Of a stretch of DNA of 64,000 bases, positions 20,780 through 54,645 are shown piece by piece. Position numbers and translations under genes: made by a program. The notes beneath the pieces were generated by a model. It was not told the origin of the DNA, did no database searches, and worked only from the letters and a program-made list of their open reading frames with translations. Every line of letters begins with the position of its first letter. Within the stretch, counting starts at the first letter, position 1. The DNA is from Owenia fusiformis (Eukaryota): assembly GCA_903813345.2 (NCBI GenBank), contig CAIIXF020000001.1:13640001-13704000 (forward strand), read 5' to 3'.

Positions 20780-23700
20780 TTATGAGGAGCTCAGTGACGT
20801 AGTATTTCCCAGTTCCATTGGCTCTCCCTCTGAAAGATAATCATTCCACAAAGTGTTATTAATGGTGGTCAAAAATTTTTTGAATCGTTTCAAATATTTT
20901 TTATTCCACTTAGATCTCTAAATTGGACCAATGTGGGAGTTAAATTCCCCATAATCATTGGCTCCCAAAGATGTGATTGGTTCCTCATTAATGATGAGGG
21001 TCAATTCAACAATGAAGGTCAACTCAAATGAGCAAAGACATTATGCACATAAAAATTGTAGGAAATTCAAAATCTTGAAATTAGCCAATTGACATTTAAA
21101 AGTTTTGAGAAAATTCTAATGCATATAGTGTATAACTAATTTTACTGCACATTTCAAGTAAATAATGCACGGTAATCCATCTTACCTCCATGACTAGATA
21201 CTGGCAATGTTTTGTGACTTCTCTCCGCCTCAATGAACATCTCATCCACTACATCCCAGAGGCAACTTTCAAGTGGAAATTCATTGTCCACTAGATTCAC
21301 TAGGTAGTAATTGTCGTGTATAAAGTCTATGGTTTTGCGAGACACTGAATCATCAGGGTAAATATGACCCCAGCTTTCTTGCCAAAGACCAAAAGCTTCA
21401 TCCTGAAAAACCACAAAGATGGTCAAAATAAATTACATTATATTCTTCCACCTAACAAATTTCAACCGAAACATTTTTTCTCGGTAAAATATCACAAGTT
21501 ATATTTTATATAACAGTTCCAAAACTCTGTCTATAATTTCTAATTTCTCAAGTAAAGAGGAAATGCCCCACAATTCATAGAGGTAAGATAAGTCCACCTA
21601 TGAATTCTGGGGTATTCCCTCCTCTTCAACAAGCTCTATGTACCCACCTTCCAGTGTTTGAAGGCTATTGGATCAACTACTGTTGGCTGAATGATCTCCC
21701 TACCAGGGAAAACTCCCCATGTGACAGCTATAGGCTCCATTGAATCACAGTTGGAGTAGTCCTCTTCACCCTATTAACCATAAAAATAGATTGAATATAA
21801 AAATAGATTGAATATGAATACTATATATTATATATGTGCAATAAAAATATTTATTTATACCAAAAAGTAAGGCACTGACAGTGTTATTTAGTTTGATCTG
21901 ACGAGTGTTAATTCTTACCCATATAAAATATATGAATAGAGCGGGTGTACCAATCAATTTGAATTCTGTCAGGATCAGTGGTATAATAAAAAAAAAAAAC
22001 ATCCACATGTATATTCATAATAATGATGAATCAAAAGTCTGATACTATTAGTACATCCTAAAGTCTTTATCTTTAGGATAGAGAAAAAAGAGGATTATAA
22101 AGTAAGAATAAGAAAAAGCTTAGACAAGAGTAGTAGGCCTAGACATGCAAATTAATTAGTAAAGAAATAGTAAGAAGCCATTGCCAGTGTTTACCTTATT
22201 CAACAAATGCAATTTCTGAGTTGAGCCAAAGTTTGTTATTTCATCGCTCCCCTGTTCAAAACCAAAGGAGAGATATGTTAACTACACGTACATGCAATCA
22301 AGAGTGCAAGAGTAGATAAAGCCAAAGCCAAAGATAAAGAAAATCATAATGCTCAGATTATAGGTTTAAGAATGAATAGGGTGCTTTTGCTATTAGTATA
22401 AGGCATGCAACTTTGAAAGTTAGGACTAATCAAGTCTTATTAGTAAAGATGTCAGGAAAAGAAGCAATGTCAAGCCATATTAGCTGCATTGTTAAAGATA
22501 TGAAGGATTAAACTTGGTCTCGTCAAAATTCAGAACATCCTGCACCTTTCACCATCAATAAACTTTAACACAAACCTTTTCTTTTGAACAATAAAGCATA
22601 TAAATCAACTTCTATAATTATAAGCACTTGCCATGCTTAATATATTTACAGAAATCGTAAAATTGTAATCATTTGTACTAAGGTCTATTGATGCTTCAAG
22701 TTATAGGTTGTTTTTTTCAATTTAGGCATGTCTAAGACCAGAATTAAGCACTGCGTAATGTAAAAGACACATATACATACATTGTTGTTTATAATGTGGT
22801 AGTTAACTCGATCAGAATATTTCTGCAAGACTGTCTTCAGGGCATCAACATTCTCTCTGGGAGTGAAAAACTCTAAATATGCCTGGAAATATGTTCAACT
22901 ACATGTAGTTATGTCTAATTCATGTATGTAACGCATAAATAAATTTAAAAAATAATTATTTTATTTCAAAGATGTCTTATAAAGCTACTGATATCAGAAA
23001 TCTACAAAAAACAACATGTGAACTGATAATATCTGAAAATCACTTTTAAACTAACCTTCTGGAAGATGTATCCATTTTTGTTCCCCCAGCCCAGGGCAGG
23101 ATCACTTGATGACACTGCATTGCAATTTGGTTGTGAATTGATTGTTAGAGCACCACGTCTATTGATATCTGCAAGCCTATCCTTAATCAAACCAGTCTCT
23201 GGGGATAACAGATCATCATTCCATGGTAATGATGTCACCTTAAATTCATGTCAAAATGATTATAGCCTGATGGAGTAAGGAATTTACTTAGAATGTCTTG
23301 TATTGATTGCTCCAAAAACTAAATCATGTCATGACAATTCAAAATACTGCAAATAGCGTTAATTAGGTGATGTCAATAGTCAGTTTACAATGTGATATTT
23401 TATCCTATAGATTTTTATTTGAAATTGAATCAAACCAATTTACAACAAACCCTAGAAATAGTATATGTTGTATGACTACCTTTGTGCCCTGAGCATTGTC
23501 CTCCCCAGTGATGTACTTGTGGAAAATATCCCAAACATCCTGTTCAGTCTGTAACTCTTGTCCCCACATCTTAAGCAGATCCTCTTTGGGAGTTTTAGAT
23601 TTTAAATAGAACAAATAATAGTCTGTGATTTCCCCAAATGCTGCCGAAGATGAGTTACCCCATCTGCCATTGGGAAACTCATCCCAGTTAGAAGTCCTGT

Positions 23701-26700
23701 GAATATAACTCTTTGGTCGGGACCTCCAGAATATTGGTCGAACATCTTCCGTACACCGTGTGTGATTGGCAGTTGGTTTCCAGGGAAGCGATCGTCGTGG
23801 TTCCTCGCACCACATACCAAGTCTCTTAAGTATTTCAATCGTGGCGACCTCACGGTTTAATGTATAGAAATGTAAACCATGTACTAGGCCACTATCTAGA
23901 CAAGTCTTACTTAGTTCAACAGCCATATCTATGCCAAAGTTTCTAATAGCTTCATCATTGTCTTTGATTGGGTTGATTGCATCAAGAATTTCTTGAGGGA
24001 CTTCTAAACGGGAAAGTTTCACAATGTGTCGGAGAGATTGGTATGCCTGAAGTGAAGAAATGTTAAGTGTTAATTTACAACAAAAAAATCAAACATGATT
24101 ACTAGATTTAATACTAGATTTCTTGCATTTTAATTCAATTTATCACCAAAATGGCATATGCTGCAATGTAACATCAACTTTTAATGGAAAGTGCATGAGA
24201 TGGCTTATATATAAGGCAGATCTTTTAAACAAAGTAATGCACAATAATAACAGGGGCTCACTACAAACAAAACTTAACAGGTGTTTTTGATTTCTTCAAT
24301 AAAACTCGCAATACCTGAATAGGCAAGATCCCTGGAATGATTGGACATTTGATTCCGATGGCTTGACAGTCTTTTACAAATGACAAGAACGTTTCAGCTT
24401 TGAAAAAGAGTTGGGTAATTATGAAATCTGCTCCAGCGTCAACCTTCTCTTTCAAGTACTTGAGATCATCTTCATAGGAAGTGCAGTCTGGATGTCCGGT
24501 TGGGTAACCTGGAAAATCATGAATTTTGAGACTTATTTCAGTATTATCACTTAAAATGACGCTACTCCTATTTGGTGATATGACCACCTTTTAAGCTGGG
24601 CCTAAGTAAACTTATGGGCCGGTTTTTTAAGATGTTACATCACTTTGCAAACATGTAAACCAGATTTCTCTTTCATCTCAACCTACCTAAAAGTTAGGCT
24701 TTTAATATGAGTATAACCATAGACACAAAAATTGAAGATAATTTAGGTCCAACATTTACATTTCAAAATATATAGATTTTCAAGTTTTTATAACAAAATT
24801 GATGATTGATTTCTTTACCTGCGACGCATATCACAAAATGGTCATCAAACTCTTGTTTGATATGTCTAACCAGATCAGTCGCATAGTTGCATCCACCTTC
24901 AGTCGGGGCCCAATCTTCGTCTTGTGGGGGATCTGGAGTGAAAAGCCATTAAAAACCTTCCGAGTTATTAAGTCCAGTGTTAGTAAATGAGGGGGTTAAG
25001 GACTATGTGTTAGTTTATTTCTAAACAAGGCATTAACATGCAAGATGTCACCACCACCGAACATCAACTGACAAATAGCAACTGCCGAACACTATCTATC
25101 TAGTGGGAGACTATAACAATTTAAAATTGCAGCATGTTCTTGGGATTTATATTTTAAGGAATCACTATTAAATATTTGTATCTACTCACCAAGCAACTCA
25201 TAGTATAATACATGCACAAAAGTAGAGAAAATGTTCTGTGTATTCTAAATTCTCAAACAGCAAAGCTTAGAAACTTAGGTGTATGTTATGTGTATTCTAA
25301 ATTCTCAAACAGCAAAGCTTAGACACTTACCACCTCTCAGTGCTAGAATATTCCTGATTCCCAGATCTTTGGCCTTTTGAAGGAACGCAGTAATGTGTTC
25401 CTTTGTACAATTACAACAGGTCATGTGTAGCATGGTGTCTATGCCACAGTAGTTCAACATAGTTCCAGCTATCATTGTTGAGCTGGTAGGTTTGTTCGAT
25501 GAGGGATCACCCGCTGGATGCCATGTGATGTCACAGAATAGAGGCTGACCTTCGCTCATACGGTCAAATCTGAAAAATACATAAATACAACTCAAAAACA
25601 GAACTAGTCAAAACACCCTTTTATTATTCAATTTTTGTCAAAATACTGGCCTAGGTATATTTATAGAAATATCAGTGATTCAGTTATATACTATTACAAC
25701 CAGAACAACGGCAACGCCAAAGCGTAGCAAATCCCATCGAACAGAAATCATCACTAGCCAAGTTGTCATCAGAAGAAGTATGGCCGACTACTCCCCAAAG
25801 TTTTATTAGACAATGTGGCATGCTTAAAGTATTCACATATCAAATATGAACAAAATCGCTCCACTAATTTACAAGTTATAGTAAAAAACGTAAAAATGGT
25901 GGCCATTTTTCAAAATGGCCGCCTTATACCCAAAGCGTCATTAGACAGTGTGCCATGCTTATAGTATTCACATATAAAATATGAACAAAATCGCTCTCAT
26001 ACTTTGTGAGTTATAGTAAAAAATGTAAAATAACACAAGTAAAAATGGCGGCCATTTTTCAAAATGGCTGCCTACTACCCGAAATGTCATTAGACGTTGT
26101 GCCATGCTTAAAGTTTTCACACACCAAAAACAAAATTTACTACCTATAATGTCATTAGACATTGTGCCATGCTTAAAGTATTCACTTACCAAATATGAAC
26201 AAAATCGCTCCACTACTTTTTGACTTACAGTAAAAAATGTTAAATAACACACGTAAAAATGGCGGCCATTTTTCAAAATGGCCGCCTACTATTCAAAATG
26301 TCATTAGACATTGTGCCATGCTTAAAGTATTCACATACCAAATATGAACAAAATCGCTCCAATACTTTTCGACTTGCAGTAAAAAATGTTAAATAACACA
26401 CGTAAAAATGGCGGCCATTTTTCAAAATGGCCGCCTACTACCCAAAATGTCATTAGACATTGTGCCATGCTTAAAGTATTCACATACCAAATATGAACAA
26501 AATCGCTCCACTACTTTTCAAGTTACAGCAAAAATTGTAAAAATGACGTGCAAAGGCAGCCATTTTTCAAGATGGCTGCCATGTATTTCTTCTATATTTA
26601 CATTTCTAGCTTACATTACATTAAAAACATATTGCTATTACAGTTTTATATGCAGTACCTAAATTACTGTAAAATCGGCACTAAAATGGCCGCCATTTCT

Positions 26701-29700
26701 TTTTGAGCGGCCATTTTGAAAATCGGTTTTCGAGCAGAACTTCTACCCCCATTGGGTATATGAATACAAAATATGAACAAAATCGGGCCAGCGGTATTTG
26801 AGTTATTGCCCGGACAGACTTCGTTCGATGGGATAATAAGTAAAGAGCAGATAAATTGCATAATAAATGTCAAAGTTCAGGAGATAAACATTTCACCACA
26901 TTTAATGACTGTGTTCATTCAGGTGTTAGGGATTACTGTATATATATCCAGGTCATAATTTCTGTATTTTAAACAACCTCTCCAATACTAAAGCAACCAT
27001 TTAATAAGAATTTAAAAGTAATTTGCACCCAGTCGAATATTCATTCGCACACTCTGGACCAATGATATTGTGAAAATTGAACTTTTTAAGCTTAATGAAA
27101 ACCTATTTACATCCACAAAAAGGGTTAAGAAGTCCTAAAAAATCATATTTTAATCAAATTGGAGGCAGATGTGCGAATATTATTATTATTGAAAAGATCT
27201 TAAAAGACACCGTAACTAACAGATTGTCTTTCGTACAGCAGTCTGCATAGGGTTCTACTGTCTAGTCCACATGGTCTATCGATCTTTAAATAACTTAGTT
27301 ATAAAGTCCATTCATGGATCAAAGAGTATATATCTAAATTAAGCAACCATATGGTTTAGTTTAAAGACCATGTGACCATTTATTACTTTATTTTTAGATA
27401 ATTTGATTTTTATATATTCATAACAATCTTATCCAGACATGTCTGAGTAAGAAATGTGACTTAAATCAGCTGACAGAATCATGAATGAAAACTGTGAGTC
27501 TAAGCCTTGCTTCAATAGTATTCTAATCAATTAACTTAACCGCATTCATTGATAAAATGTGTACAATGTCCATAATTTAAACTAGTTCCCCTGATAAGAT
27601 ATAATTTGGGCAATAATTATAAATTAACCAGTTTTAATAAATAACCAAGTCAAGATGTGTTGGTATGAGGTCTGGGGAAGTTTCCCTGAGACTCCGAACC
27701 GTGCATTACAATTTTATCCTCCGAGTATCTTGAAAGTGACTTAAATGACAGTTGGAGTTGGGATATAAACAAATGTTAGCTATGAATAGGTAGATGACAT
27801 AGTTTTAAGCCAAATGTGCGAAATGCATTTTAAGATCAATGACGTCCGAGGAATGACCATATACAGATGTCATTCGCATTTCAACAAAATTTAATTTGCT
27901 CTGATTTTTGAGATTTATTGTAAACTAAAAAAGCTCTCTTTTAAGAAGCCAAGACGGATGAATGCAAAAAGTAAAGGATAGTTCACTGTTGGTAAATTAT
28001 TTAACGTCCCCAAATAGATTTTTTGACAAAAATAGTACATGTCCATCTACTACTAGACTACTTGACTTAAGATTAGTGATGTAATATTCTATTGAAAGCC
28101 CATGTGTAGACACAAAACTAAAAAAAATCTTGACCCTAAACCTATGAAATCTTAAGGACAGTAAATAAATGAATCCAATATCAAAAAAAAAATTAAATAG
28201 AAAATATATGTCAGTAATCAAACATATGTCCTTATGGTATCTTACGAATGTCACAATCTTGATAATTTTATAAAATACTGAATATGGTCAAGAAACAAAA
28301 TTATGGGAAATAGATGGCTAAAAAGCTGAAACATTTAACATACTAACAGAATATTTAAAACTTTCAGAATTCCTAAATCATTTTGCATTATAACCATTGA
28401 TATAATGACAGCATACTATTAGCGAACAATGGATACTGTAACTGTATTAAGAATGTTTTCTTTACAAAGTAAACTAGACAACAGCAACGCCAAAGCGTTC
28501 GATGGGATAATAAATAAATGACTGGTCTTTATGAGTTACAAAGTAAAACAAGGCATCAATAGGCAAAATGTCACCACCCGCCATTTGTTACAGATGTCGA
28601 CAACCAAACACTTTCCACTAAAAAAGTTGGGAGACTCCTAACAGTATGTCACCACTTGTGGTAGTGACATAAATATTTAAGTTACAAAAATGTAAGAAAG
28701 TCATTGATCATTGAATTTGACATATGATAATTAGGGGTTTCATTAGCAGCAGGCAACAGGCGTTGTTCAATGGGTGTTTTCACAAAATCGCCTGTTGTTT
28801 TTAAGGACTTTTCAACTTTTCCATGATAAATCTATGATTTCCATTGATTTAGCCTGTTGTTTTCATTTAATTAGCCTGTTGTGAGAAATTCTAGTGAAAC
28901 CCCTGAATATGCTGTATATTCTTTATTTGCTGGAAACACTTAGCAATAACATGAGGTCATTTTACATCTAAATGAAGACATAAGTCATAAAATCGAGGTC
29001 TTTGTTGCGATTTTAATATGATAATAAACAGACAAGAAAAACAACTTTTTGCATTTATGAATTTTAGCGGTCATACATACTCGAATATAGACCAGTAAAT
29101 CAATTGTTCTAGCTATTGTGACGTCACGTTATCATATTAGAATTGGAAATAAAAAATAATACAGTAAAATTTTAATGTTTGGAACTACTTTGAATCTAAA
29201 AAAATAAGCAATTAAAGGACCATATTGAAACAGAATATGTAAAAATAGAAACATTTATACTTGTCCTAGCTTTTGTATATTTTAGTTTGTTTTGTAGTTT
29301 AGCTATCATATCTGTGGCGTCTTATATTTTGATGCTTCTCTGCCATGTTATTTTCGAAAAATTAACATGGCTGAAACTCCCTAAATTACAAAAGGCCACA
29401 GCTTTGCTGCACATTATACATAACTATCTGAAATATACAAAAGTTAGGACTTGTACATATGTTTCCATTTTTTCATATACTGTTGCAATATAGTCATTTT
29501 ATTGCTTATTTTTTAAATTCAAAGTAGTTCCAAACATTTAAAATTTTACTGTAGTTTCATATTTATGCACCCCACCAAGGATCAATGATATTTCAATCAA
29601 CATTGTTATATCAAAACACTCATTGATCAAATAAATCATATAATAGTTATTTGTCAAGGATAAAAGAAGTCAATGTTCTTCAGCAGTGTGGAAAATACAA

Positions 29701-30384
29701 TACAAAGACAGGATATGAAAGAGGTCATACTGACCCAACCTCAATTACAAAACTTATTTATCACATGAAATTATCTTTTGAGGAAGTCCGGAACTACAGT
29801 TAAGTACCTGGACCATTAATTGCAAATAAATGTTCTCATGTTTGTAGGCTTTACAAGGCAAATCCATAAATCAACAACAATATTGTAAACAAACGCTGGA
29901 TTTAGCCCAGCAAATGTATATTTATCCAGGGAACACAGGATGAAACAGGATCTCATTAGACGTTTTTAAAAATAATATGCCGCTTCAAAAAATCACAAAT
30001 TCTGACTCAAATTTACAATCAAACATGCTCCATATACTCAGATAATCAAATCTATTCTACCATGTGGAAACCTCAAAATATATATTTTTCAATTTTTAAC
30101 AAAAAATATACATAATAAAAGCTTGTGTCCTAAATTTGATCATAAAAACAAAAATATTACCGTGCAATAAGGTTGACTGCACCATTGTAGGTTCTGGGTG
30201 GGAAGAACTCTAGTGAGAAGAATGGATCGCCCGATTCAGCTCGTTTATGTATTCTGTCAATCAAACTGGTATATTTGTAAGTAGGTAACACTGGTGAACT
30301 TGGTCTGGACATTTGGGACTTGAACATACATCTTTCTTTAGATTTTATTTCTGAATCCTCCAGTCCTAGCAGAGCTTCTGGCAT
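20780..30384 (-). CDS. MTHFR: Methylenetetrahydrofolate reductase (catalytic and SAM-binding regulatory domains), complete
   Basis: Exons: 30161-30384, 25331-25569, 24819-24932, 24315-24508, 23480-24046, 23056-23238, 22781-22882, 21648-21770, 21186-21402, 20780-20829; alternatively read-through to the stop at 21154. Motifs: [83 protein letters not shown]. Confidence 0.97.
25698..26839. mobile_element. Helentron/HINE (pearl/CvA-like) element with ~149-bp tandem repeats in an MTHFR intron
   Basis: Subterminal inverted repeat ATCCCATCGAAC (25731) / GTTCGATGGGAT (26823). About 6 units of ~149 bp with AAAATGGCGGCCATTTT palindromes, and a GGACAGAC microsatellite remnant near the end. Confidence 0.8.
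28732..28905. mobile_element. Short hAT-like MITE
   Basis: TAGGGGTTTCATTAG / CTAGTGAAACCCCTG with internal GCCTGTTG repeats. No TSD recognised. Confidence 0.65.
29162..29551. mobile_element. Tc1/mariner (pogo-like) MITE with ~120-bp TIRs
   Basis: TA|CAGTAAAATTTTAATGTTTGGAACTACTTTGAA ... TTCAAAGTAGTTCCAAACATTTAAAATTTTACTG|TA. Confidence 0.85.
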
Positions 30385-31420: not shown

Positions 31421-32073
31421 AAAAACGAAGTGGTAAGTTTGAAAAAAATATTTCTCTTTTATTTCAGATTCTCTTTCCATTTGGGCACGATATGACTAAA
31501 TAATTCATCTACATTAAAGGAAGTAATACATAGTTTGTAAAATGTTGGCTCTAACACTTGACTTTTTATACTTAGCAACTTTTGAAACAGTGGGTGGGCG
31601 ATAATATCACGGGGAGTTACTATTTTTTTCATGGCCTGAGTTCGCTAATTTCTATTACACTCATCTTATTAAGAGTTCATATTGCATAATAACCCTTATT
31701 ATCGGATTCCAGCTGTTAGTAGTATTAATTTGAATAAATTAAAACTGAGTAGTACAGCTGAGTGGACATGTATATGCACCGATAACTAGGCCTATTTTTG
31801 CTTAGCTGCCAACGGAAACACACCTTTATAAGAGACTAGGCTATTTGTACATAGCTGTAAATAGCACATGGATTTTATTTCAGATGATCTGCTTGACTTG
31901 TTGAATTTTTTCAACAGTCATTTGTTTGCTATTTTTTGGAACTTTTATTTACTAGTCTAGCTACATTTGTTTGGACTTATGAACCATTAGTACGGCTCCT
32001 AGTGCTCCAGAAATTATGTACTTGGACAGGTAGGGAAATATTATGATTTTTCAAGATGGAAGTTTGAATACTG

Positions 32074-32320
32074 AAGGTCTAAATGACCATGGTCTATAAT
32101 GACCACAGTCAAGGTCTAGATGACCACATGTTAGGTCTAAATGACCATAATTTAGGTCTAAATGACCACAGTTTAGGTCTAAATGACCACAGTTTAGGTC
32201 TAAATGACCACAGTTTAGGTCTGAATGACCACATGTTATTTCTAGATGACCACATTTTAGGTCTAAATGACCACTGTTTATGTCTGAATGCACACACCAA
32301 AGGTCCAAATGACCAAAGTT
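32074..32320. repeat. 21-bp minisatellite (GGTCTAAATGACCACAGTTTA)n
   Basis: About 11 units, each with a GGTC-n5-GACC palindrome. Lies inside the DIRS 5' region. Confidence 0.9.
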
Positions 32321-32536
32321 CAAGGCCTATAAACCAAAGTTTGACCAAGGTTCAAAATGAGCCGCCATCAGAATAATAGTCATATTAGAGGTCGTATTAC
32401 AGTTTCAGCGAGCATATCCATTTGCATTGCCTCATAGTAGGTTCAAATTAATAGAATCATTTTGTTTTGATTCAAGTTCTAGTAATCTAGTGCTTATAGA
32501 TTCATGTTCTGTTTATCAACGGTCTATATGTTCAAT

Positions 32537-35500
32537 ATGTTTGACTCAGTTTTCGAGGAGAACAAGTCTGAATTGAAGATAACAGACAAGCATGTAAAAT
32601 CTGTCCATAAATATTGGTCAAAAACATTATCCTAGTAGATATCAAAATATGAAGAAAAGGCTAGAGTAAGCTATCTAGAAAGTAAATGAACTAAAAATGT
32701 TCCTAGTCCCAAAGCAGGTAGAAACTTACAATTGCAAAATGGGAAATGGCATATGCAATACTGGTAATGTGTGTCACATGGACTTCCTGAAATAAAGCTC
32801 TTTATCCATGGAAATTGGGTTAACAGCCCTAGATCAAATGACAATACTCGTACAATATTTTGATTATTGTTGCTAAACAAGGATTTCCCATAACCAACTA
32901 CTGTAGTTGAAACAAGCTTCATGCTTCAAATTTTCATTTTGACAAGAGTGAATTGGAGAATTTTCTGTCTTCATACCATTACCAAAACCAAAAAGAGAAT
33001 ACCCCAAGCTGGGCGAAAGAATTGTTTGGTGATGACTCAACAAAAACTTTGAATTTTGTCAAAGACATGAAAACATAGTTTTCTAGATCAAAATCTTTTA
33101 ATAGATTATAAATACAAGTATTTGGCAGTCTTTTGAATAGGCCAATGAAAGCAGAAGCTAGCCGTCAGCTGGCAATAGCTACACAGCTAGAAGTCATGAC
33201 AAACAATGTCATTATACACGACGTCGCTCCAGCACAACTTACGCTGTAGAAAAATCCTTGTCCAATGACAGGTACGTCAATTTTATTTTAAAAACTAAAC
33301 CAAAATGGCTCTAAAAAAGATGAATGTTTTGATATAACATCAGATCTAGAAAAAACTTTCTGGAAGTTCACTAAAACAGAAACTTAGGTAAATTACATAT
33401 ACTTTTTGAAGTTTCAAAGTCACCTACATAGAAATATGAAGTATGGTCAAGGTTACCAGAGATTCTGAGAAATGATAGCAATATAGCTTAAGATTTCTAA
33501 ATGGAAAGCAACTTTAATATTTCTCAAAACTGCGATTTTAAGCAATCGGATGTTTTGTCCATCCTTTAAAACAGGAGATTCAGTTAACTCTTAAACATGC
33601 AACAGAAAAGCAAAGTCAAGCATAGATCAATTTCTGTGTCACATATTGTTACAGGAGAAAAGGATTGTTCCCAGAGACTTGTTCTCTAACTAAACTCTTA
33701 ATTTTAAATCTAAACCTTAACCATTTAGTTGGTATGAATATTTCAAAATGGAAGACAATAAATTGGTAACTCTAAGAAACATGAAATGGCCAAACGATTA
33801 CCGATGGTGAAAGTCCATGCTAAGGATGCTTATATGACCATAAGCACAGGAAATATCTCTGTTGAATGATATAACATCATTTGAGATCATTACTATGGAC
33901 CTTGCTTCCCTCAAACTCGTGAAAATACCATAAGCGCTATTGTGGAATATTTAATTTGGTTTTGAATCTTTTATTGATTCTCTGATGTCATTCACCTCTC
34001 GCCTATCCACTGCTCATGAACATGATTTCAAGTTAGTGAAATATTTGTTTCAAACCGAAGTTTCTGATAAATGGGGAAAAGCCTATTGTTGATTTGTTCC
34101 CATCATAAAATGGAGCTTTGTAGTTTTGTGATCAATACAATTGAGATGAACTTGAAGGCCTTAATAGAAATGATAGTTTCTATCAAAATTCTCGCAAAGA
34201 TTTTGTAGAGATAGAATCAACCCTAGTCAGTAATCTTACTCAAGTTATTGAGATACTTTTGAATTGTACTTTAGTCTGTAATATGTATATTGAACCTCTA
34301 CATTTATTGACACTTGCAAAGATCAAAGCAGTCCTACATGTATGCATTGATTGCCAAAATAACTCACTAAAATGAATATAAAATTTGATAGTGATTGGTC
34401 CAAGAAGACGAAATTCAGAATACTAATAGTGTTATCCGAATCAATAATTACAATAACAACAAAAAGCAGCCTGTTTGGCTAAAGCTCAAGTCTGACGGGA
34501 CAGTAGCTTAGGGGAAATAGATTAAACAAAAATTGTTTCATATGAATGAAAGCCATGGATATGGTACACGTGAAAGTATTCACAAAAACTTAGACAATGT
34601 TATATAAAATTAACAAGAAAACCACCATAACATTATGTGAACAAAATGTGGGGAACGAGATGGCTAGAAATGTTAAAGGCAATGCAAGATCGTTCAGATA
34701 CCTTTGCCACAGATATCATTATTAGCTGTATAATATCTTCCAAGGAATCAGAATTGAATGTCAGATCAAACCTAGAGAAATTTCTCGATGCCTCAAACTA
34801 GAAATAAGATTGGGAGATTTTTCCAAATTTAAGTTTTAAGGTCCAAATAAATAGATTTTGTCGACCAGTAGAAAATTAATATTTCAGGTGGAAACTAAAC
34901 CCAGAAACTCTGGAAGTTGACATATTTATTCAGAATAAACAGTCAATAACTTTCCTCCAATTTCTTAAATCAGCCGATTACTCGTTAAAGTAATATAGAA
35001 AAATGCACAGATAGCTCTCATAGCCCCAATGTGGCAAATGGCTCTGCGGTATCTATGATTGTTGGAAATGTTGGTCTTTATGCCCATCTTATTGCCAAAC
35101 CATATGAAATTATTAATATCTAATCTTACAGCCTTAATAAAAAAGCTAGATAACACTTATGGTGTCCAAATTATCATCCTCAAGTTTGAAACTAGAGGTT
35201 TCTGTGACAAACTGGCAATACATGTATGTTCATTAAATCAAGTAAAGAAAGTACTTAAATTACTTCCAAGGACCCCTGGAAAACATGGGTACGCTGCAAG
35301 TTCTAATAAACATGACATTAATATTTAGCCTCTGATACAAATTTAGCCAATTTCCTAACTGAAATGTCAAATCAAGTATGATGCTATTCGTTTCTCGATA
35401 CTTAAAGTCTGCAAAATCAGCATATAATGGAACCATAGATAGTCATAGGTAAGTCAATACCATATTCTTGTTGATTTTATGGAAACTTTTACAATGGAAA

Positions 35501-36160
35501 CCCACTAAATAAAATAAATGAAACTTGGGATGTGAATAAGGTTGTACTGTATCTCACATTGAACATTCGGGTCAGAATAGAAATCTCAACTGAAAGTACA
35601 CAATTAGTCATGTTAATGTCTATTTCAAGCATGTATCCCAGGGTCTCTGAAATAATATGCCATTGGATGGTTATCAAAGACAGAATGTTCAACACATAAA
35701 ATTGGGGTTCCAAGATTTTTTTCATGAGAATCCATTTAATGATGTTGTACTAGCATTTAGAAAATACCAGAAACATCTGAAACAAACTACTAGTAGTAGA
35801 AGGAAATCATAAGAAGGAAGTTTAAATTATCCTTGTCAAATGTCATGCGATGCCATGCGTGTACATATCCAGTAAAACATCTCATATACATACACATTAG
35901 CAGTTTCGATAACAATACATAAAGATTTCAATTTTATAGAATAATAATAATAGATAGATATTTAATAAATACATTTAAGTACATTTGAAAGACATATTTA
36001 ATCAGGTATGCAGTAACACAGTACCATAAACTTGAACATTTGATATATCTATAAACCAAGTCATGGGAAATGCAAATCTCTGAATGCTTTAAAACAATTT
36101 TACAAACTGATAAACTGATAAAGGAAATTAAAGGTTTTAGATCAGTTGTTCTGAGGTTAT
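32537..36160 (+). pseudogene. Decayed DIRS gag, RT-RNaseH-methyltransferase and tyrosine recombinase
   Basis: Long protein-like frames broken by many stops and frameshifts (e.g. ..TPSWAKELFGDD.. at ~33000), with the ordered motifs listed for the element. Confidence 0.75.
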
Positions 36161-36171
36161 TTACTTTAAAC

Positions 36172-36282
36172 ATGCAATATGAACTCTTAATAAGATGAGT
36201 GTAATAGAAATTTTACAATTTCTTAAGAATCTCGCTAATGAAATTATAATTTTATTAACGAGATCTTATTAAGAGTTCATAT
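36172..36282. repeat. DIRS internal complementary region (ICR)
   Basis: 36172-36212 is the exact reverse complement of 31647-31687. 36211-36282 is the exact reverse complement of 36784-36855. Confidence 0.92.
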
Positions 36283-36853
36283 ATTCCCTCCTCGCCCACC
36301 CAGTCGTTAATTGTCACTAAAACACAGTTTTGTTTTATTTCAGAACATAACCACAGACAACTGAGTTATGAAGGATAGAATTAACATTCAACAATCTTCA
36401 TCAAGTCAAATATAATGTATCTGTATTTTTACACTCTCAAAGTTGTCGTGAAACTTTTTAAAGTTTAAATCTCACAAACAGTGATAGGTTTATATCCTAT
36501 ACTACACAAGGACTTTATTTTAACTTTGCATCCCACAAAGATTTGGGGATAAATTGGACATCTCACAAGCAGTAGATGTATTTGTTTTCTTTGTCAAAGA
36601 ATTCACTGAAGTTTACTCATAGTAAGGTGAGTTTTCAATGGCTTCAGAATTTTAAGTTGGCATCTAAGCAATAGACCTAGTTATCGGTGCATATACATGT
36701 CCACTCAGCTGTACTACTCAGTTTTAATTTATTCAAATTAATACTACTAACAGCTGGAATCCGATAATAAGGGTTATTATGCAATATGAACTCTTAATAA
36801 GATCTCGTTAATAAAATTATAATTTCATTAGCGAGATTCTTAAGAAATTGTAA

Positions 36854-37838
36854 AAATATAAGAGTTAGCTGACGTTTGGGAGTCTGACTTACCTTCTAAA
36901 GGTTAGAACCCGAATCTTAATGAAACCATATCACCTTTGTTGCGTCGATGATGATGCATAAACACAGCATTTGATAGAAATTACAGTTGGGGACATAAAT
37001 AAATGACAGGTGGATTTGCTGAAGTGAGGATTTCCCATGTTAAAAATAAGAGAATTTACAAGAGGCCATACATCAGTGGATGAGATTATACAAAATGTAA
37101 AATATACAAATTTTAAGGGATATATATCTAGACAATATTGGAAATTATGGGCTTTCAGACCACCATAATTAGGAAATGGTGATCGAAAATCGACCTGTCA
37201 TTTATTTTTGTCCCCAACTGTAGTGTAAATGCTTTTCCGACTTTTTCATTTTTCATCAATGTTGACTTCCGGGAAGGCGTTGTAGTTATCACGAAATAAC
37301 GCATTGACCCTTGAACTTTGTTGACGTGTCAACCAAGCATGTCTGGTGTGAAAATTAAAAGAATATTAAGCAATGTTCTACATCCGCCAAGCTAAGTGAA
37401 GTAGCCAATATTTAAAATTACCAATTTCAAGTGAAGTACGCAACGAACGAAACTGCGTGATCTGCACTCCCACTATTGGTCTGAACGAAATGCTACGTAG
37501 AAATATGAGCCGTCTGCTGTATTAGTCGATTAATAGAGTAAGACCTGTTGGTGATGCTTTATAATTTAGACCAAAACATTGGAGAACAAACGAACCTGTA
37601 AATCGTGAAAACAACGAACAAATATTCGGTTTTCACATATGTTCGGTAATTTTTCGTATTGAAACTTCTGGAACTTACAAGGAAATCATTCATTTTCATG
37701 GTCAATGATTTACCTCTTGGATGTTGTGGCAAATGCTCCATGGTTGACGGAACAAATGTGATATGGTTTCATTAAGATTCGGGTTCTAACCGTTAGAAGG
37801 TAAGTCAGACTCCCAAACGTCAGCTAACTCTTATATTT
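36854..37838. mobile_element. Non-autonomous element with 81-bp TIRs
   Basis: 36854-36934 and 37758-37838 are reverse complements with one mismatch. No ORF. Confidence 0.85.
36984..37219. mobile_element. Tc1/mariner-type MITE nested in the 81-bp-TIR element
   Basis: TA|CAGTTGGGGACATAAATAAATGACAGGT ... ACCTGTCATTTATTTTTGTCCCCAACTG|TA. Confidence 0.85.
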
Positions 37839-44796: not shown

Positions 44797-47354
44797 TTAT
44801 TTCAGCTCTACTTCTGCAAGGTTAAGTTCATCGATATCAATCTCTGTTCGTATCTTCATTGCACTTAGTTCTAATTTCTTCAGAGTCTCCTCAGTTAAGA
44901 TTACTGACTCTAAATCCTTTGTCAGTTTACCAGAATTATAATCCGAACTCAGTTCTTCAACTTGGGATTTTTTCATGCATAAATTTACCATTATACTGGT
45001 ATCTGTAAGGAAGGTCCCCAAAACTAGGATTTCACGTTTCTGTTCGAAATACTTCAACATTGCTATGTGGCATGGAGTGCCTGTGTTATTTAAGATATCG
45101 TAAAATTTCTCGGCAGTGTATTCCAGTAAACCAAAAGCATTTCTGTTATTTTCGATATGTTCCTTACTGGTATATTTGGAATTATTTGAAGTACCTGGTC
45201 GATTTGAATGTACATTCCTAGCACCATTAGACGTGGAGATATCTCGCTCTTTATATTTTTGTTCCTTTTTATGACCTCCAAAAAGACAGGAAAAACATAA
45301 ACAATGGCAGCAAGATTCGTTCTCTTTTTGTGGTTCTTCTATATCTAAAATCTCCAAATTTTCCATAGATCGTCGACGAGGCTCAATTTGAGCGATTGGA
45401 CGTGGTTGGATAATTTTGACGTCCTCTTCACTTTGTGTAATCCACTCTCTGCTTTTGGCCCATGCATTTTCTGTTGAATCATCTTTCTGTAGTTTGATTG
45501 CAGTCACTTTTATCTGAACCCCAACTTGGCCTGAAAATGTAAAATGGAAATGATTGCTTCAAATGTAAGTATTATAGGGAATTAATTGAAACAGAATAGA
45601 ATCGTGTGCTAACGATTGATCCTCTCTGACACTTATACATCACTTAAAGGCAGATGAAAAGGTGGATTTGAGAATGCCAGTAAAGTGCCAGAGGTAAATC
45701 TAATAAGGTTAGGAGGTTATAAAAGTGAGACATACATGAAACAAAGAAAATGGTTATCTATACATAATTTTTCCAGTTTTCTTTATAATATTTATTTTAG
45801 ATATTATTATTAACGTTGCAAGGAACAAATTCAAAATATTTGATCTAACTTAGCAGAATCAGAGAGTACATCATTGGGAGCCCATATCAGGCTGAGAAAA
45901 ATTAATTTATTATATACTGGCAAATACAGGGGGGGGGGGCATAGGACTATGTGCTATGTGCCTCAATTATTTCCAAAATTTGGACCCAATTTTTTGATTT
46001 TGGGGCCCAAAATCTTTTTTTACAATTTAAAATGTGCCCCCCCCCCCCCCTTTTTGGCTTCTGGATCCACCAGTGTTATACATGTATCGTGAAATGTTCT
46101 TGAAAATAGCATACCTCGTTTGCGCTTTGTACCCAGGTATCCTGTAAATACAAGAAAACAATATTGAAATTGTAATAAACTGTTATTAACATGATCATAT
46201 GTAACCAGAATACACATGAACAGTATCCATGAATATCATATTACACATTAGTGCTACTAATGAGCTAAAAATCTCAAAATTAGGAAAATGGCACAAATTC
46301 ATCAGCATTTCTATGACAAATCAAATTATCACTGGATATTGGTTTAAAAGGTGATCACTGTGACTTGTAATTACAGTCAGTGTTAGCTGCACAGCTGTGC
46401 ATATGATTACAACTATGTAGGACAGGTTACATTATACTCATAGTTATGCATCAAAAAGAACAATAGAAAATATATATCATCTTCATTTCTCATACATGTA
46501 CATACTGAGTTACTTGAGGGAACAATATTATGCTTCAGAGAAAATACAATCAAACTTTCTTATGATATTTATATTCAGGGCAAGTAGTTTCTTGAGTTGT
46601 TGGTTTTATCAGTTGTAATATTTTAATTGTGTTTGATGTAGCGTACTTGTGTTTATTGTTCAAATATCATGATTTACAGTAGATATCACATCATAGACTA
46701 AGAAATGAATGATAAAACAATTTGGCATTTTAAATGAAAACAATTTACTTTCTGGGTGACATAGTAATTACATAATGTTTATCCCCTTCAATTTAGTTCT
46801 TGCGTGACATCATAATTGTCTATTGTCAGATGCAGTGTTCTAACAAGGATATTTTCTATAAGTCGATGCAAAATTCTCCTTATAGATGGTCAAAAATGCC
46901 TCTTTTGGTAATTTGCAACTTGGTGCAAATGAGTTTTCGAGTGGGTGCAAGCCAATTTTCCAAAGCTCAAGTTGGTGCAGCACCCAGTTGGTATAATGCA
47001 AGGGTGATCACTGAATTGTCAAGAAAGTTCACCTACCTGAGCCTGACTTTGGCCTGATCCTCTCTCCCTCATCTAGCTGGTTCGCCAGTTGGTGCTGCCC
47101 CATCGTACGCAGTGCGTTGATGAACAGCTTGTATGCCATATCTCCGCCATTCTCTATGGTTTGTAACACAGCGATATTCACCTTCGCTTTACTTTTCTCA
47201 GCCCTTAACTCCTCGACAAATGCCTTCTCTAATACTCCATTTTGAATGAGATAATCAAATATGACATCGCAGTCGAGTTGTTCAATCACCTCGCGACGTG
47301 TGCTGAGTGGGCGTGTGTCGGGCATCTCATTCGCGTCACCATTGTAGTTGCTGC
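44797..47354 (-). CDS. CARD-domain protein with a C-terminal TRADD-N-like domain (death-fold adaptor)
   Basis: Exons 47037-47354 (CARD: RREVIEQLDCDVIFDYLIQNGVL..GGDMAYKLFINALRTMGQHQLANQL), 46115-46141 (27-nt micro-exon) and 44797-45530 join in frame through GT-AG sites. The C-terminus VEELSSDYNSGKLTKDLESVILTEETLKKLEL..IRTEID fits the TRADD-N-like pattern. The start may be MPDT at ~47325 or lie in an unidentified upstream exon. Confidence 0.8.
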
Positions 47355-49070
47355 CTGTAGATAGAATAATTTCAGATGTGTGAGAAACATAAAGAAGTGG
47401 ATTTGAGGTATAGAATGAGGAGTGGTGTATTTCATATACACTATGGTGAAACAGATGTGGGGTGCTTTGAGAAGGCATTTTGTGTGAAGGTATCCAGTTT
47501 ATGGTACTTAAAGTTCTCCATTGGCTACATTTATTCCATATTTGGTTGTAGTCATTGCTTGTTATTCATTGTTACTTCATTTTCTACACTGTATAATTAC
47601 AATGTACTAATTCCTATCAAAATTGCCCGATTTGTTTCTCCATCAGCTGTTTTAAATAGTGTCTATATAAATTCAATCCAAACAATTAATGTTTCTGTCT
47701 GTGTTATATTGTGGTATTGTGTCTTTGTCATCATCACTAGTACATACTGTGGTCATACTAAATATTTCATTTCATATTGAATCTCATATAGCCATATACT
47801 TGACAATGTTCTACTGTCTGTTATCCGATTGTCACATACTGTACAGACAGCACCCAGGATGTTCTGTGAATACTGAATAGCCACAGAATCATACTTTAAT
47901 AAACCCTGCCATATCAACTATATTAAAAATAGATTGATTGATCCCAGCTTTATTTCTCATTAATTTTAGCTCCAGTAACTTTATTTCCAATTAAGAAAAA
48001 TCCATTTCGCACTAACTTAAGTTGCTAATATGGAATCATAACATTATCTGAGATCTTTTGGAAATTGGTCTCTTTCTACAATTAATCTAATGGAGTGAGA
48101 CCTTAACTATTGAGTCTATTGATTTGCTTACTTTCATATAAATCCATGTTCTAGGGCCCATGGTAATATAATTTGGTATAAATATGTATAATTTCATCTT
48201 CCCATCTGTCACAAATCTTAACAGATGTGCATTGTATATCATATTTTCTTGGACTTGCAAAACAACATAAGTCTGCACACTACAATGATTAGCATCATGT
48301 TCGATTTTTCTTGCATTGTGTATTATGCAATTGTGAAGTTGAGAGTTGAACACCTGTAGAACATACTTACGTACACTGATTTTAATGAGAAAGCACAAAG
48401 GGCAACATAAGAAAAACAACTAATTTTACCCTGGCCTGACAAGATTATATAGACCTCTGTTGAGTTACTGTTGATAATTGTTAACAATACAAAAAGGGTT
48501 CATATTTTTGAATGTGTGAGTAAGTGCTCCAGCAAATATTTTATCCTTTAGGATAATAGAATAAGGTCCATTGTGTGGATTTATAACATTTTTATGTCAC
48601 TACCAAGAATTGTTATAGCCATTGTTTTTATGACTGCGGCTTTCAGTTATTTTTAACCATTTTCAATTACTTAAGAAGTAAAGTTTCTGTTACCATGGCG
48701 ATGAATTATAGGGCTATATGTCTAACATTTATTACACTGTTCCATCAAGGTCAGATTGACTTGAAAGTCACACATCATTCACCTTCAGGGATGTCATGGT
48801 CATCTAAAGGTTTTTTGACAGATATTTGACAAAATGAAAAATGGCTGTTTCATTTAGCAGCTAGTTTGAGAACATTCATTCCCTCTCATGATAAACCATA
48901 TAATTAAAAGACTTAACACCTCTATGTATGTATTATTTATTTGCGTCTAGAATAAGACAGTTACATGCACATGTTATACAATAATTATAGAAAATGAAAT
49001 AAAGAAAGTAAAAAAGTAACAGGGAACATGATTTCAAATCAATTATGTAGTGTGAACTGTCCTACATGAT

Positions 49071-52000
49071 TTAGATCATTGATACTCTGGCTCTATGCAT
49101 GGAATATATTACAAGTGATATGGAGCAGAGTGAGTCGATGCTCTCTAAGGTTGAGCTCAACCCTAAAACAAAGTCCATCTTCTCAGCAAGTGACATACGG
49201 CCTTCACTCTCCAACATTGTGAGTAGAGTCTGCCGTTCATAGGTAATTATATCACATTGTAGTATAAAATGTTCAATAGTGTCTCTTGAATTGATGCACA
49301 ATGGGCAAACCCCATTCTCAAAAGGATAAGACCCCGCTAGGAGTTTAAACATAAGTTTGCACTGTTTTTTGAAAATAGGTCTCAGTTTACATATGAGCCA
49401 CCATATATTTGGCTGCACGTATGAGATGGATAATGTACAAGAATAAAATGATAAGGAACTATACAAAGAACACATCATTCTAATGCTATTTGCTTCATTA
49501 CAGTATAAAGCATTTCTTACAATGCGTTTAAAACCTGATTTAGAGAGATATTCCCCAGACTGTATCATGTTCATAGATAAAATGGCAAAAGTGTACCGTT
49601 CAAGTGTTCTCCAAATGATGGAAAGTGGAGAGTTATGCCGTCCATTCCCCCCTATGAGCCACAGCAATCTATGTATCAAGACGGTTTTGTAAATATTATT
49701 CATTGGTAACACTATTATACTCCAGAAGAACATCATCCTCGAGAAATCTATCTGTCTTCTGATAGAAAGCCATCCAAGACCTGAAGCTGCTATAGGGTTC
49801 GGCGAACTTTTTGGGAGTGCCTGAATTCTTCTTCCGATTTCACGATGTGATATTTCCATTTGCTCTATTTCGTGATTACTATAGTCTATTACCTGGCAAC
49901 CGTACAGTAGCTTGCTTATTGAGAAAGTCCAATATAACTTACTGGCCATTAGTGGGCAAAGGCCACCTGTTAACGAGCCAAGCCCCAATAACGAAAAATA
50001 TTTCTGTTTTGATTTGCATATCGTTTGCTTTACAAAGTCGTTGTGGTTCCTAAGGGGTATCCCGACGTGCAGCTCTCCTGTTTTTTGTTGAATTGCACAG
50101 GGGCCAAGTAAAGCGGTATCATTGCCGTCGTCGGGTCTGCCGAAAATAAGAAGCGAGCATTTACCTGGATGGAAAGTGATTCGCCAGTATGAACTGTAAT
50201 TCCACACGATGCTTAATAGTCTGTTCATACTTTGCATGCTAAGAGATAAAAGTGATAGGTCATCTGCGTACGCAACTACTGAGACGTCAGTGCCACCTAT
50301 ACGTACTCCACATTGCTCACCCACAATATCATACAAGAGATCTGCGAGGTAGAATTGGTAGACAATCATCGACATCACCCCGCCCTGATGGACACCTTGT
50401 TCGACGTTAAAACTGCTAGAACATTCACCGTCATATAAAATTGAACAGTTATAAGTTTTGTAGGACGTGTACATCATTCTCCAGAACTTTCCATTCATGC
50501 CGCATCTGTAAAGTTTGTAAAGAAAACCATCAATCCACATTGAATTGAAGGCTTTGCGCACGTCCAATAGAGAACAATATACAGTAGAACCCTTATCCCT
50601 ACAGTGGGATATAGCTTCCTGTAATAAAAATGAAGTGTGAAGTGAAGAGCAGGAATCTATCGAGGCACCCTGTAGTTGTGGGATGTGTGCCAGGAAACGA
50701 TGTTTACTGCGGCTGAGCAGCACGTTGTCAAATAGCTTCCGCAACGAGGACATCAGAGTTATATCACGGTAGTGGTCCGGATCTAGCGGGTCTTTATTCC
50801 CACCCTTAAACAATGGTATGAGTAGTCCATTACAAAGACCCCGGGGGATATGTTCATGCATACGGATAATATTAAAAAATACACAAAGTACTGATACTAG
50901 GTTTGGACCGCCGAATTTTAGGTGTTCAGCTGAAATTTTATCGCATCCGCACGCACGATTTGTGTTAAGGGCCTTAAGAGCATCATTAGTTTCGTCCTCT
51001 GTGATTGGCATATCAAGAATCCCGTCTTTGTTTGGCATCGATTCTGTTCTCAATGAAATCACCCGCCGTTGGATGTAATCGTGGAATTGATCATTAAAAT
51101 GCGGGGAATTCCCAGGTGTAGCTAGTTTTGAGAAATGCCTCATCCACGCATTGCGAATTTCAGATGGATCCGATAAAACTACATCCTCATCCCGTATAGA
51201 GTTAATCCTTTGTGATTTAGTTCCCCGACTCCTAGAGACAAGATGCCAATAAAGTCGTTGATCTATGGCGTCGTCTTGTAGTTTGTCCAGCTCTTTTTGT
51301 TCAAAATCGCGTTGCGCCTGAGAGTAAGCCTTCTTAAAGGCTTTGTTAGCAGCCTTATAACGTAAAAGTATCTCATTGTCCGACTGACGTGGGCGCCCTT
51401 CATTCACCCATGTGCGCCATGCAACATTTTTGGTTTTTACCAGATGTGAAAGATTAGGATTCCAGAAAGGTTTCTGATGCTTCCGGAATTTCTTGATAGG
51501 CACATCACAAGAAGATTTGATAATCGTATCAACTACTAATTCACTAAAACTGTCAATTTCTTCATTCCTGATATCATTGGTTTTTAAAAGATGTCGCCCT
51601 TGTATAAGTAAAGGTTCAATGTTATGTTCGAGTTTCGTCGTGTAACAGGACGCAATCTCGTCATTAGACAGCTTATTCCAAGCGAACTGCTCACAAGGGG
51701 TTTTTGCACGCACAATGGGTACAATATTGAATAAATCAAGTTTTGTTAGAATAACAAGATGATCGGATGACAAGTCTGGAGAATCCTCAAACACTTCACA
51801 GTATGTTATATTACCCGCTAATTCGTGTGATATAGCGATGTGATCGATGTATGACGTTTGACCTGTGTTAATATGTGATATAAATGTGTACGTTGGTCCT
51901 ACTGTGTCATTCATCATATCCCTTATACAAAGACCGTTACTAATACACATATCAAAGAACAATTTTCCATTCGCAGATGGAATTCCTACACTTCTACTAG

Positions 52001-54291: not shown

Positions 54292-54645
54292 TATACATAG
54301 CCTATGAACTTAGATCCATACGATAACAAGTACAAGTACGAGTATTTTTATTTCCGAGGGCGCCGCCATATTGGAAAAGTATAAAAGTCACAAAAACGTG
54401 CACAAATCCATCATTTGTCGCTTCGATGGGAATTGTCCTAAGATATACTCCTCACATGTGTCTGCTCGAGACACTCATGGATGGTTTGGATCCAGAAATG
54501 ACTTCCAATAGTCATGTATTTGTGTGAAAAAACACTTTATAAATGCAAGTGGTACTGACACCTGTACCCAGGTTATACGCCATCTAAGGCACCATGTACA
54601 TCATACCATTTTACTCTAGTAGTTTTACGAGAGCAGATATATAAG

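Follow-up and report, generated by a model that had tools for sequence, protein, structure and literature searches.

How can a retrotransposon whose reading frames have all been destroyed keep repeats without a single mismatch? The question is raised by a DIRS1-like element in a 64,000-nt stretch of the genome of the annelid Owenia fusiformis (GenBank assembly GCA_903813345.2, contig CAIIXF020000001.1, positions 13,640,001 to 13,704,000 of the forward strand), hereafter called the window, in which all coordinates below are counted. The evidence presented here indicates that positions 31647-36855 probably represent one young insertion of a non-autonomous DIRS1-like retrotransposon, whose interior decayed long ago and which was mobilized by helper proteins.

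The element carries two inverted terminal repeats (ITRs) and, in its interior, also one complementary region (internal complementary region, ICR) composed of two halves, each complementary to one of the element's ends (Table 1). A four-way alignment of the repeats shows 128 consecutive identities between 31663-31790 and the reverse complement of 36676-36803. A preliminary description of this locus had reported these perfect 128-bp ITRs together with perfect ICR halves of 41 and 72 nt, and all of the coordinates were reproduced by repeat search, self-BLASTN, and four-way alignment; the circle-junction string that it proposed is the reverse complement of ICR positions 36201-36218. Chance cannot account for flawless matches of such lengths (128, 72, and 41 nt) within 5 kb. 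Where the ICR halves meet, they share 2 nt (TT, 36211-36212), as opposed to the 3 nt of the usual descriptions. The first 20 nt of the left conserved ITR form a block that is invariant in both termini and in both ICR halves, with 20 of 20 positions identical between the halves themselves.

Perfect identity of the ITRs ends abruptly on their inner side. The two arms of the inner extension differ by two mismatches (C/T and C/A) with a 3-nt indel between them, agree at 18 of 20 positions apart from that indel, and lose all similarity past 31813 and 36656; the divergence of 31791-31813 from 36656-36675, also pointed out in the preliminary description, thus amounts to 2 substitutions and one 3-nt indel. 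The same pattern is seen in the repeat search (inverted pair I1, 31650-31796 and 36670-36816, 147 nt, 95%) and in self-BLASTN, where 31663-31813 aligns with 36803-36656 at 96.7% across 151 gapped columns. Were 3 ITR differences placed at random in 151 columns, all of them would fall within the inner 23 with a probability of 0.0035. On the outer side, the 16-nt left terminus matches the left ICR half exactly and the right terminus at just 8 of 16 positions, whereas the 16-nt divergent part of the right terminus and the right extension of approximately 36 nt find their sole match in the right ICR half.

The right terminus, together with the last bases of the ITR, forms a hairpin (36796-36843) that is a candidate self-primer and recalls, by analogy, the 3' hairpin proposed as the primer of DIRS-1 (PMC7192593). 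The predicted fold of 36784-36855 has an energy of -19 kcal/mol (z -5.4), with none of 200 shuffled sequences folding as strongly, and that of the entire ICR reaches -36.7 kcal/mol (z -7.1). The element begins with the trinucleotide AAT and ends with AAA, and the TT of the ICR overlap corresponds to the AA found at both ends; unequal end trinucleotides also occur among the DIRS1-like elements tabulated in PMC3266345 (Table 3 of that work). The flanks, ...GAGTTCGCT and ATATAAGAG..., share no common direct repeat, i.e., no target-site duplication was found at the insertion, which is compatible with recombination at an AA dinucleotide.

Between these termini the element has no coding capacity of its own. 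The number of stops per frame varies between 102 and 136 in approximately 1736 codons in the six frames, and base composition predicts approximately 135 (7.8%), so that over whole frames the stop density is that of random sequence. The longest stop-to-stop frame on either strand spans 97 aa and lies inside a 21-bp tandem array, and the earlier statement that all reading frames are ruined is borne out by both measures. The region upstream of pol (31814-33700) contains no open frame and includes this array, which sits where gag would be expected; the 373 nt that follow the ICR, up to the right ITR, show no coding either. The array itself could be a protein-binding array or a plain microsatellite-like expansion in neutral DNA.

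Remnants of proteins are still recognizable in the decayed interior. A single frame of 33700-35799, with stops read as X, was compared by phmmer exhaustively with 1.84 billion representative proteins, and 15 proteins were obtained at E <= 1e-3 (best 6.4e-8), all of them matching positions 34840-35350. Among these 15 matches, RVT_1 was detected in 2, a Dam-like methyltransferase domain in 4, and either domain in 5 (E <= 0.01): the protein P0003 combines RVT_1, RVT_3 (RNase H-like), and Dam, whereas P0006, P0013, and P0014 carry Dam. The combination of RVT_1, RNase H-like, and Dam-like domains is, judged by domain composition, that of a DIRS pol. The closest proteins are 33-54% identical to the element over short stretches only. 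A search seeded with P0008 yielded longer relatives, 3 of 10 of which contain a Pfam tyrosine-recombinase domain.

The remnants were placed by local tblastn and by small profiles built from the matched proteins, and those of the reverse transcriptase (RT), RNase H, the methyltransferase-like (MT-like) domain, and the N-terminal half of the recombinase were found to be collinear on the plus strand (Table 1). The MT-like remnant reaches 54.5% identity over 55 aa in tblastn and a profile E of 2.1e-16 on six frames. The RNase H remnant aligns with residues 202-308 of P0013 at approximately 30% identity; searched against the entire window, the pieces together reach an E of 2e-8, and the profile gives an E of 0.0022 on six frames. 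With 7 in-frame stops between them, the RNase H and MT-like remnants are not functional. The recombinase remnant covers positions 19-162 of a 320-position profile (20.4 bits, E 3.6e-7 on six frames) and is 40% identical to residues 761-802 of P0019 (E 0.002). As for the RT, a chain of 111 collinear profile positions was equaled in 2 of 300 shuffles, and residues 131-143 of P0007 align by tblastn with 33804-33842 (69% of 13 positions); the single-frame score, matched by 8 of 200 shuffles (E 0.5), is not convincing alone, and RVT_1 is absent from the Pfam scan. The spacing of the remnants is near that of intact relatives, and the element is therefore about full length. Taken as a whole, its assignment to the DIRS1-like elements is supported by the repeat architecture together with the sequence homology of the pol and recombinase remnants. 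Three recombinase-related proteins (P0019, P0020, and P0024) have long, oddly composed N-terminal parts resembling pol in a shifted open frame, possibly corresponding to the long overlaps of open reading frames (ORFs) described for some DIRS elements in PMC3266345.

Table 1. Features of the DIRS1-like element in window coordinates
Feature	Coordinates	Strand	Description
Whole element	31647-36855	+	5209 bp; full DIRS1-like repeat set
Left terminus, "divergent ITR" part, 16 nt	31647..31662	+	Repeat search and four-way alignment
Left ITR, conserved part, 128 nt	31663..31790	+	Repeat search, self-BLASTN, and four-way alignment
Inner ITR extension, left arm, 23 nt	31791..31813	+	Four-way alignment
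Tandem array, 21-bp unit with a GGTC(N5)GACC palindromic core	32056..32363	+	Repeat family D1; Tandem Repeats Finder 32091-32320, 10.9 copies, 79% matches
Reverse transcriptase remnant	33736..34220	+	Four weak pieces, collinear; the frame alternates
Remnant of RNase H (C-terminal part) and of the beginning of the MT-like domain	34634..34936	+	Frame 3; 3 in-frame stops
Remnant of the MT-like (Dam-like) domain and the pol end	34951..35334	+	Frame 2; 4 in-frame stops; best-preserved part
Remnant of the tyrosine recombinase N-terminal half	35229..35654	+	Frame 1; 9 in-frame stops; overlaps the pol end in another frame
Expected place of the recombinase catalytic half	35655..36171	+	Very AT-rich; no similarity
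ICR left half, 41 nt	36172..36212	+	100% complementary to 31647-31687 (pair I3); repeat search, self-BLASTN, and four-way alignment
ICR right half, 72 nt	36211..36282	+	100% complementary to 36784-36855 (pair I2); repeat search, self-BLASTN, and four-way alignment
Inner ITR extension, right arm, 20 nt	36656..36675	+	Four-way alignment
Right ITR, conserved part, 128 nt	36676..36803	+	Repeat search, self-BLASTN, and four-way alignment
Right terminus beyond the conserved ITR: 16-nt divergent part and right extension of ~36 nt	36804..36855	+	Repeat search and four-way alignment

The decay of the interior is deep. The best-supported frames contain 18 stops in 421 codons (4.3%, 95% interval 2.6-6.7%), a sample biased toward regions where alignment is still possible; inside pol the frame changes at least 5 times, and the consensus residue of the relatives is kept at 67 of 175 conserved alignment columns. 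As a rough calibration, substitutions were simulated under a simple model on the intact ORF of a long interspersed nuclear element (LINE) located in the same window, which gave 2.6, 4.3, and 6.5% stops at 0.2, approximately 0.4, and 1.0 substitutions per site, respectively. By this measure the interior has drifted by roughly 0.2-1 substitutions per site. Its GC content (0.329) equals that of the left flank (0.325) more nearly than that of the intact LINE (0.40-0.43), and its observed/expected CpG ratio (0.35) is below those of the flanks (0.52-0.56) and the LINE (0.82-0.86). The low CpG ratio fits a long residence in a genome in which some transposons are methylated, as reported in PMC11292947.

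Two further features of the remnant frames concern the type of change. Within 33736-35654 frameshifts seem few in comparison with stops (at least 5 vs. 18), and stretches of 303, 384, and 423 nt show no detectable frameshift; the imbalance could mean substitution-biased decay (e.g., by replication errors) or reflect the AT-rich composition. A variant genetic code was ruled out, since TAA, TAG, and TGA are all present in the remnant frames and since both the exons of the neighboring MTHFR gene and the LINE ORF read normally.

The contrast of the ends with this interior is an observation, as are the architecture, the homology, and the decay. No differences were found in 241 positions of the repeat pairs (128 + 41 + 72, with some bases compared twice), which sets an upper 95% bound of 1.2% on the pairwise divergence of the repeats. 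Had the ends decayed in place at the lowest estimate obtained for the interior, the probability of no differences in 128 positions would be below 1e-11. Nearly all of the coding decay therefore precedes the last homogenization of the repeats, and an element that is frameless and yet fresh from a DIRS cycle would therefore have used the proteins of another element. The copy is young relative to its coding decay, which is hard to explain otherwise than by mobilization in trans. In the preliminary description the element was taken for a recently mobilized, full-length, non-autonomous one that uses a helper: the young age of the copy and its lack of coding follow from the perfect repeats and the decayed frames, while the supply of proteins in trans is an extension that we infer from them, as are the re-templating steps and the repeated mobilization of the lineage.

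The perfection of each repeat pair has a ready interpretation in the model of DIRS replication proposed by Cappello. According to the account given in PMC7192593, the RNA lacks most of the left repeat, which is rebuilt with the right repeat as template; the ICR is used to restore the extremities, and the molecule is circularized and then integrated by the recombinase. The same source reports for DIRS-1 of Dictyostelium that the ICR is essential for retrotransposition and that RT can copy the RNA of a truncated element in trans (PMC7192593).

Applied to the element studied here, this model suggests the following history. The ancestor would have been an ordinary element with gag, a pol encoding RT, RNase H, and an MT-like domain, and a tyrosine recombinase; its interior would have been freed from coding constraint long ago and would then have drifted. 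The RNA of the element would be reverse transcribed, circularized, and integrated by the proteins of an autonomous DIRS located elsewhere in the genome, with the left repeat rebuilt by copying the right one and the outermost 41 and 72 nt rebuilt on the ICR. The closed circle would finally have recombined into the chromosome at an AA dinucleotide, without target-site duplication, approximately 1.26 kb upstream of the MTHFR start codon. The flawless repeats would thus be a mark that DIRS replication leaves on each newborn copy, the boundary at 31790/31791 the furthest reach of the rebuilt part and a candidate 5' end of the RNA, and the 23-nt inner extension a putative fold-back primer site at or just downstream of that predicted end.

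The preliminary description had read the sharp boundary between perfect and diverged sequence as marking the part that is re-templated in each cycle. This agrees with the Cappello model as presented in PMC7192593, but the edge of identity gives only the inner limit of the re-templated part, and in a portion of the perfect zone the identity may instead be preserved by selection for fold-back annealing.

Selection also appears to have acted where the model provides for no rebuilding. For the 20-nt ICR block and the inner ITR extension taken together, the probability of 2 or fewer mismatches in 40 positions ranges from 0.018 to 6e-5 for p-distances of 0.18-0.31, i.e., with drift like that of the interior. 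These two pairs, which are not reset in the model, still match, and a continued selection on the cis sequences is suggested; according to this argument, which is model-dependent and involves few sites, the cis sequences would have been maintained by selection over successive rounds of transposition as the frames decayed. A bolder proposal, which we put forward tentatively and hold to be doubtful as it stands, is that the element belongs to a wholly non-coding, full-length DIRS lineage that has persisted, through a drift of some 0.2-1 substitutions per site, as an obligate parasite of an autonomous DIRS element and was selected only on approximately 0.9 kb of cis sequence.

Four other explanations of young ends on an old interior were considered. 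The one that survives best, although we regard it as unlikely, is a one-off rescue: chance transcription of an old, dead DIRS copy elsewhere and a single passage through the cycle with the proteins of another element, in the way in which processed pseudogenes arise, with no self-sustaining non-autonomous lineage involved. It accords with the single copy seen in the window and with the fact that, under the Cappello model, re-templating alone yields perfect repeats whatever the state of the source. A source that had decayed in place by 0.2-1 substitutions per site should, however, have lost its annealing sequences too, whereas both ICR halves retain an intact 20-nt block, the inner extension agrees at all but two of its shared positions, and the 3' hairpin is strong, all of which points to repeated selection.

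Still less probable is a recombinant origin, by which the young ITRs and ICR of an active DIRS element became joined to an old interior through template switching between co-packaged RNAs or ectopic recombination. Template switching is common in reverse-transcribing elements, and such a junction would account for the abrupt passage from perfect ends to a decayed interior. Two or more switch points, placed just inside the cis sequences, would nonetheless be needed, and both the inner extension and the 373 nt separating the ICR from the right ITR resemble the interior in having no coding and some divergence. Moreover, the dead RNA would still have to be packaged in trans, and this scenario is therefore a variant of mobilization by helper proteins and not an alternative to it.

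We consider it very improbable that an old insertion decayed in place while gene conversion kept its inverted repeats identical. Conversion can homogenize inverted repeats, but here it would have perfected three pairs (128, 72, and 41 nt) lying 0.5-4.9 kb apart and spared the adjacent 23 nt; the correspondence of each ICR half to one terminus, with a 2-nt junction, is predicted by replication and not by conversion, and the probability given above for unchanged ITRs under interior-like decay would have to be overcome. Equally remote is the idea that an autonomous element was hypermutated in one cycle by RNA or cDNA editing and had its ends rebuilt afterwards: rebuilding after the editing would give self-consistent ends, and the interior is AT-rich, but the inferred changes form a broad AT-biased mix with 45 transitions among 148, only 33 of the 148 being G>A or C>T, C>A (25) and G>T (22) being the commonest, and GC skew being near zero, and editing produces neither such transversions nor the indels behind the at least 5 frame changes. 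Deaminase-type hypermutation was accordingly rejected on its mixed mutation spectrum.

The reading of the locus as a young insertion mobilized by helper proteins also has to be weighed against a number of observations that speak against it. Neither a second DIRS locus nor an intact helper was detected in the 64-kb window by self-BLASTN or tblastn, with one copy seen, and a family of copies sharing its lesions, as well as the helper, is extrapolated from that copy. In the experiments on DIRS-1 reported in PMC7192593, cDNA was obtained in trans from a truncated element but selectable retrotransposition was not completed, so that experiments have yet to demonstrate that a DIRS element can be fully complemented in trans. 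The two repeat pairs that point to continued selection count as non-re-templated solely under the Cappello model, and the estimated number of substitutions per site depends on the use of a proxy ORF and of a simple substitution model.

The protein evidence, too, has its weak points. Of the DIRS homology to RT, RNase H, and recombinase that the preliminary description anticipated, that to RNase H and to the recombinase in its N-terminal half was recovered, along with homology to an MT-like domain, whereas the RT signal is weak, and for the catalytic half of the recombinase the profile search of 35655..36171 returned only noise-level pieces with inconsistent spacing. No family was returned at E <= 1 when the six frames, their stops replaced by X, were scanned with Pfam. 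A word-indexed search of longer proteins with the best remnant produced no matches among 163 candidates, which is weak evidence, and an exact look-up of the 8 ATG-initiated ORFs of the element in the protein collection found none of the 8, a result that is uninformative either way.

The surroundings of the element include host genes and other repeats. The MTHFR gene (20783-30384, minus strand) consists of approximately ten coding exons; its residues 1-154 are 100% identical to the Owenia fusiformis protein, and identity over the large exon is 96%, which by itself places the host in this annelid or a very close relative. Oriented opposite to this gene, the DIRS element is located approximately 1.26 kb upstream of its start codon and may occupy the promoter region or an intron of the 5' untranslated region. 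At a distance of 127 nt downstream of the element, an inverted repeat pair (36982-37017 and 37187-37222, 36 nt, 94% complementary, 169 nt apart) could be a small insertion similar to miniature inverted-repeat transposable elements. The LINE used above for calibration, an apparently intact non-LTR retrotransposon (LTR, long terminal repeat), occupies 49071-54309 on the minus strand, where a 593-aa ORF with no Pfam match precedes a 1172-aa ORF with endonuclease/exonuclease/phosphatase and RVT_1 domains. It looks young and is possibly active, because its GC content and CpG ratio are well above background. Two exon-like ORFs on the minus strand belong to flanking host genes, one with a PHD-like zinc-finger domain (zf-HC5HC2H, 8209-8739) and the other with a CARD domain (47032-47565).

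DIRS elements form the least understood order of retrotransposons, and the model of their replication is described in PMC7192593 as largely theoretical, with tests in Dictyostelium only. An element with a neutral interior and freshly rebuilt ends reveals, with no experiment needed, which bases are reset by the cycle and which ones the lineage has to keep. The predictions that can be drawn from it are an RNA 5' end at approximately 31791, an RNA 3' end that lies within the 36796-36843 hairpin or precedes it, and a circle junction identical to the ICR. If the non-coding lineage proposed above is real, the neutrality of the interior would make the pattern of identity in a fresh copy a natural footprint of the replication cycle: the RNA 5' end would be located at 31790/31791, where perfect identity stops, the 20-nt block would mark the site of template switching or annealing, and the 3' hairpin would be the primer. 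It would further provide a minimal map of the cis elements for DIRS mobilization and would make an animal genome support, for the first time, the rebuilding of the left repeat from the right one in the 1985 model of Cappello. Should the genome hold a family of such copies, it would document trans-complementation by DIRS proteins in an animal. For annotation, elements of this kind are missed by pipelines based on protein profiles, as the empty Pfam scan illustrates, and are found by ITR/ICR geometry alone.

Among known elements, the closest in architecture are the DIRS1-like elements of Piednoel et al. (2011, PMC3266345), including LgDIRS2 of Lottia gigantea, AcaDIRS1 of Aplysia, and CaspDIRS1 of Capitella. 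The repeat sizes found here are within the ranges tabulated for the 28 DIRS1-like elements, some of them molluscan, in Table 3 of PMC3266345: the length of 5209 bp compares with 4.1-6.0 kb, and the ICR halves of 41 and 72 nt compare with, e.g., 46-67 and 41-73 nt, while LgDIRS2 is 5036 bp long with a conserved ITR of 141 and an ICR of 46-67. The tabulated elements also share with ours a short divergent and a long strictly complementary part of the ITR, an extension on the right side only, a conserved block in four places, A/T-rich termini (AAT...), the lack of a target-site duplication, and the domain order RT, RNase H, MT-like, recombinase (PMC3266345). The present element differs from them in its ICR overlap of 2 rather than 3 nt, in first (AAT) and last (AAA) trinucleotides that are not alike, and in the absence of any open frame; the elements of PMC3266345 were chosen for recognizable RT, MT, and recombinase domains together, and relics were not considered there.

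In the literature searched, the coverage of which is incomplete, we found no description of non-autonomous DIRS elements in annelids or of identity boundaries as a footprint of the cycle; non-autonomous DIRS elements were represented there by the mention of TOC1 only, although supplementary family lists may hold degenerate ones. The portions of PMC9587614, a study of Kolobok DNA transposons, in which Owenia fusiformis and DIRS are named (once each) describe no Owenia DIRS element. Degenerate families as such are on record: in Xenopus tropicalis, 36 of 75 DIRS-like families in Repbase show some degeneration of ORFs or repeats according to PMC9210276.

The best studied counterpart in replication is DIRS-1 of Dictyostelium discoideum, which likewise has ITRs and an ICR complementary to both termini (33 + 55 nt, compared with 41 + 72 nt here) and a hairpin near the RNA 3' end, and the Cappello model formulated for it explains each perfect pair observed here (PMC7192593). 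In contrast to our element, DIRS-1 is autonomous and has another arrangement of ORFs (PMC7192593). TOC1 of Chlamydomonas reinhardtii, termed a non-autonomous DIRS retrotransposon in PMC9940879, resembles the element studied here in belonging to the DIRS order without proteins of its own, and the variation in its copy number reported there points to mobilization in trans. Its host is a green alga, unlike the annelid host considered here. Its termini have the arrangement of the PAT/TOC3 type and not that of ITR plus ICR. A further parallel is offered by the large non-autonomous LTR retrotransposons (LARDs), such as Dasheng with its partner RIRE2, which combine a full-size non-coding interior with functional cis ends and need an autonomous partner, as is proposed here, and which differ in their direct LTRs, DDE integrase, tRNA priming, and target-site duplications. 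Non-autonomous DIRS elements and DIRS families with degenerate ORFs are thus already in print, and next to them the Owenia element is a clean and instructive example, unsurprising to a specialist.

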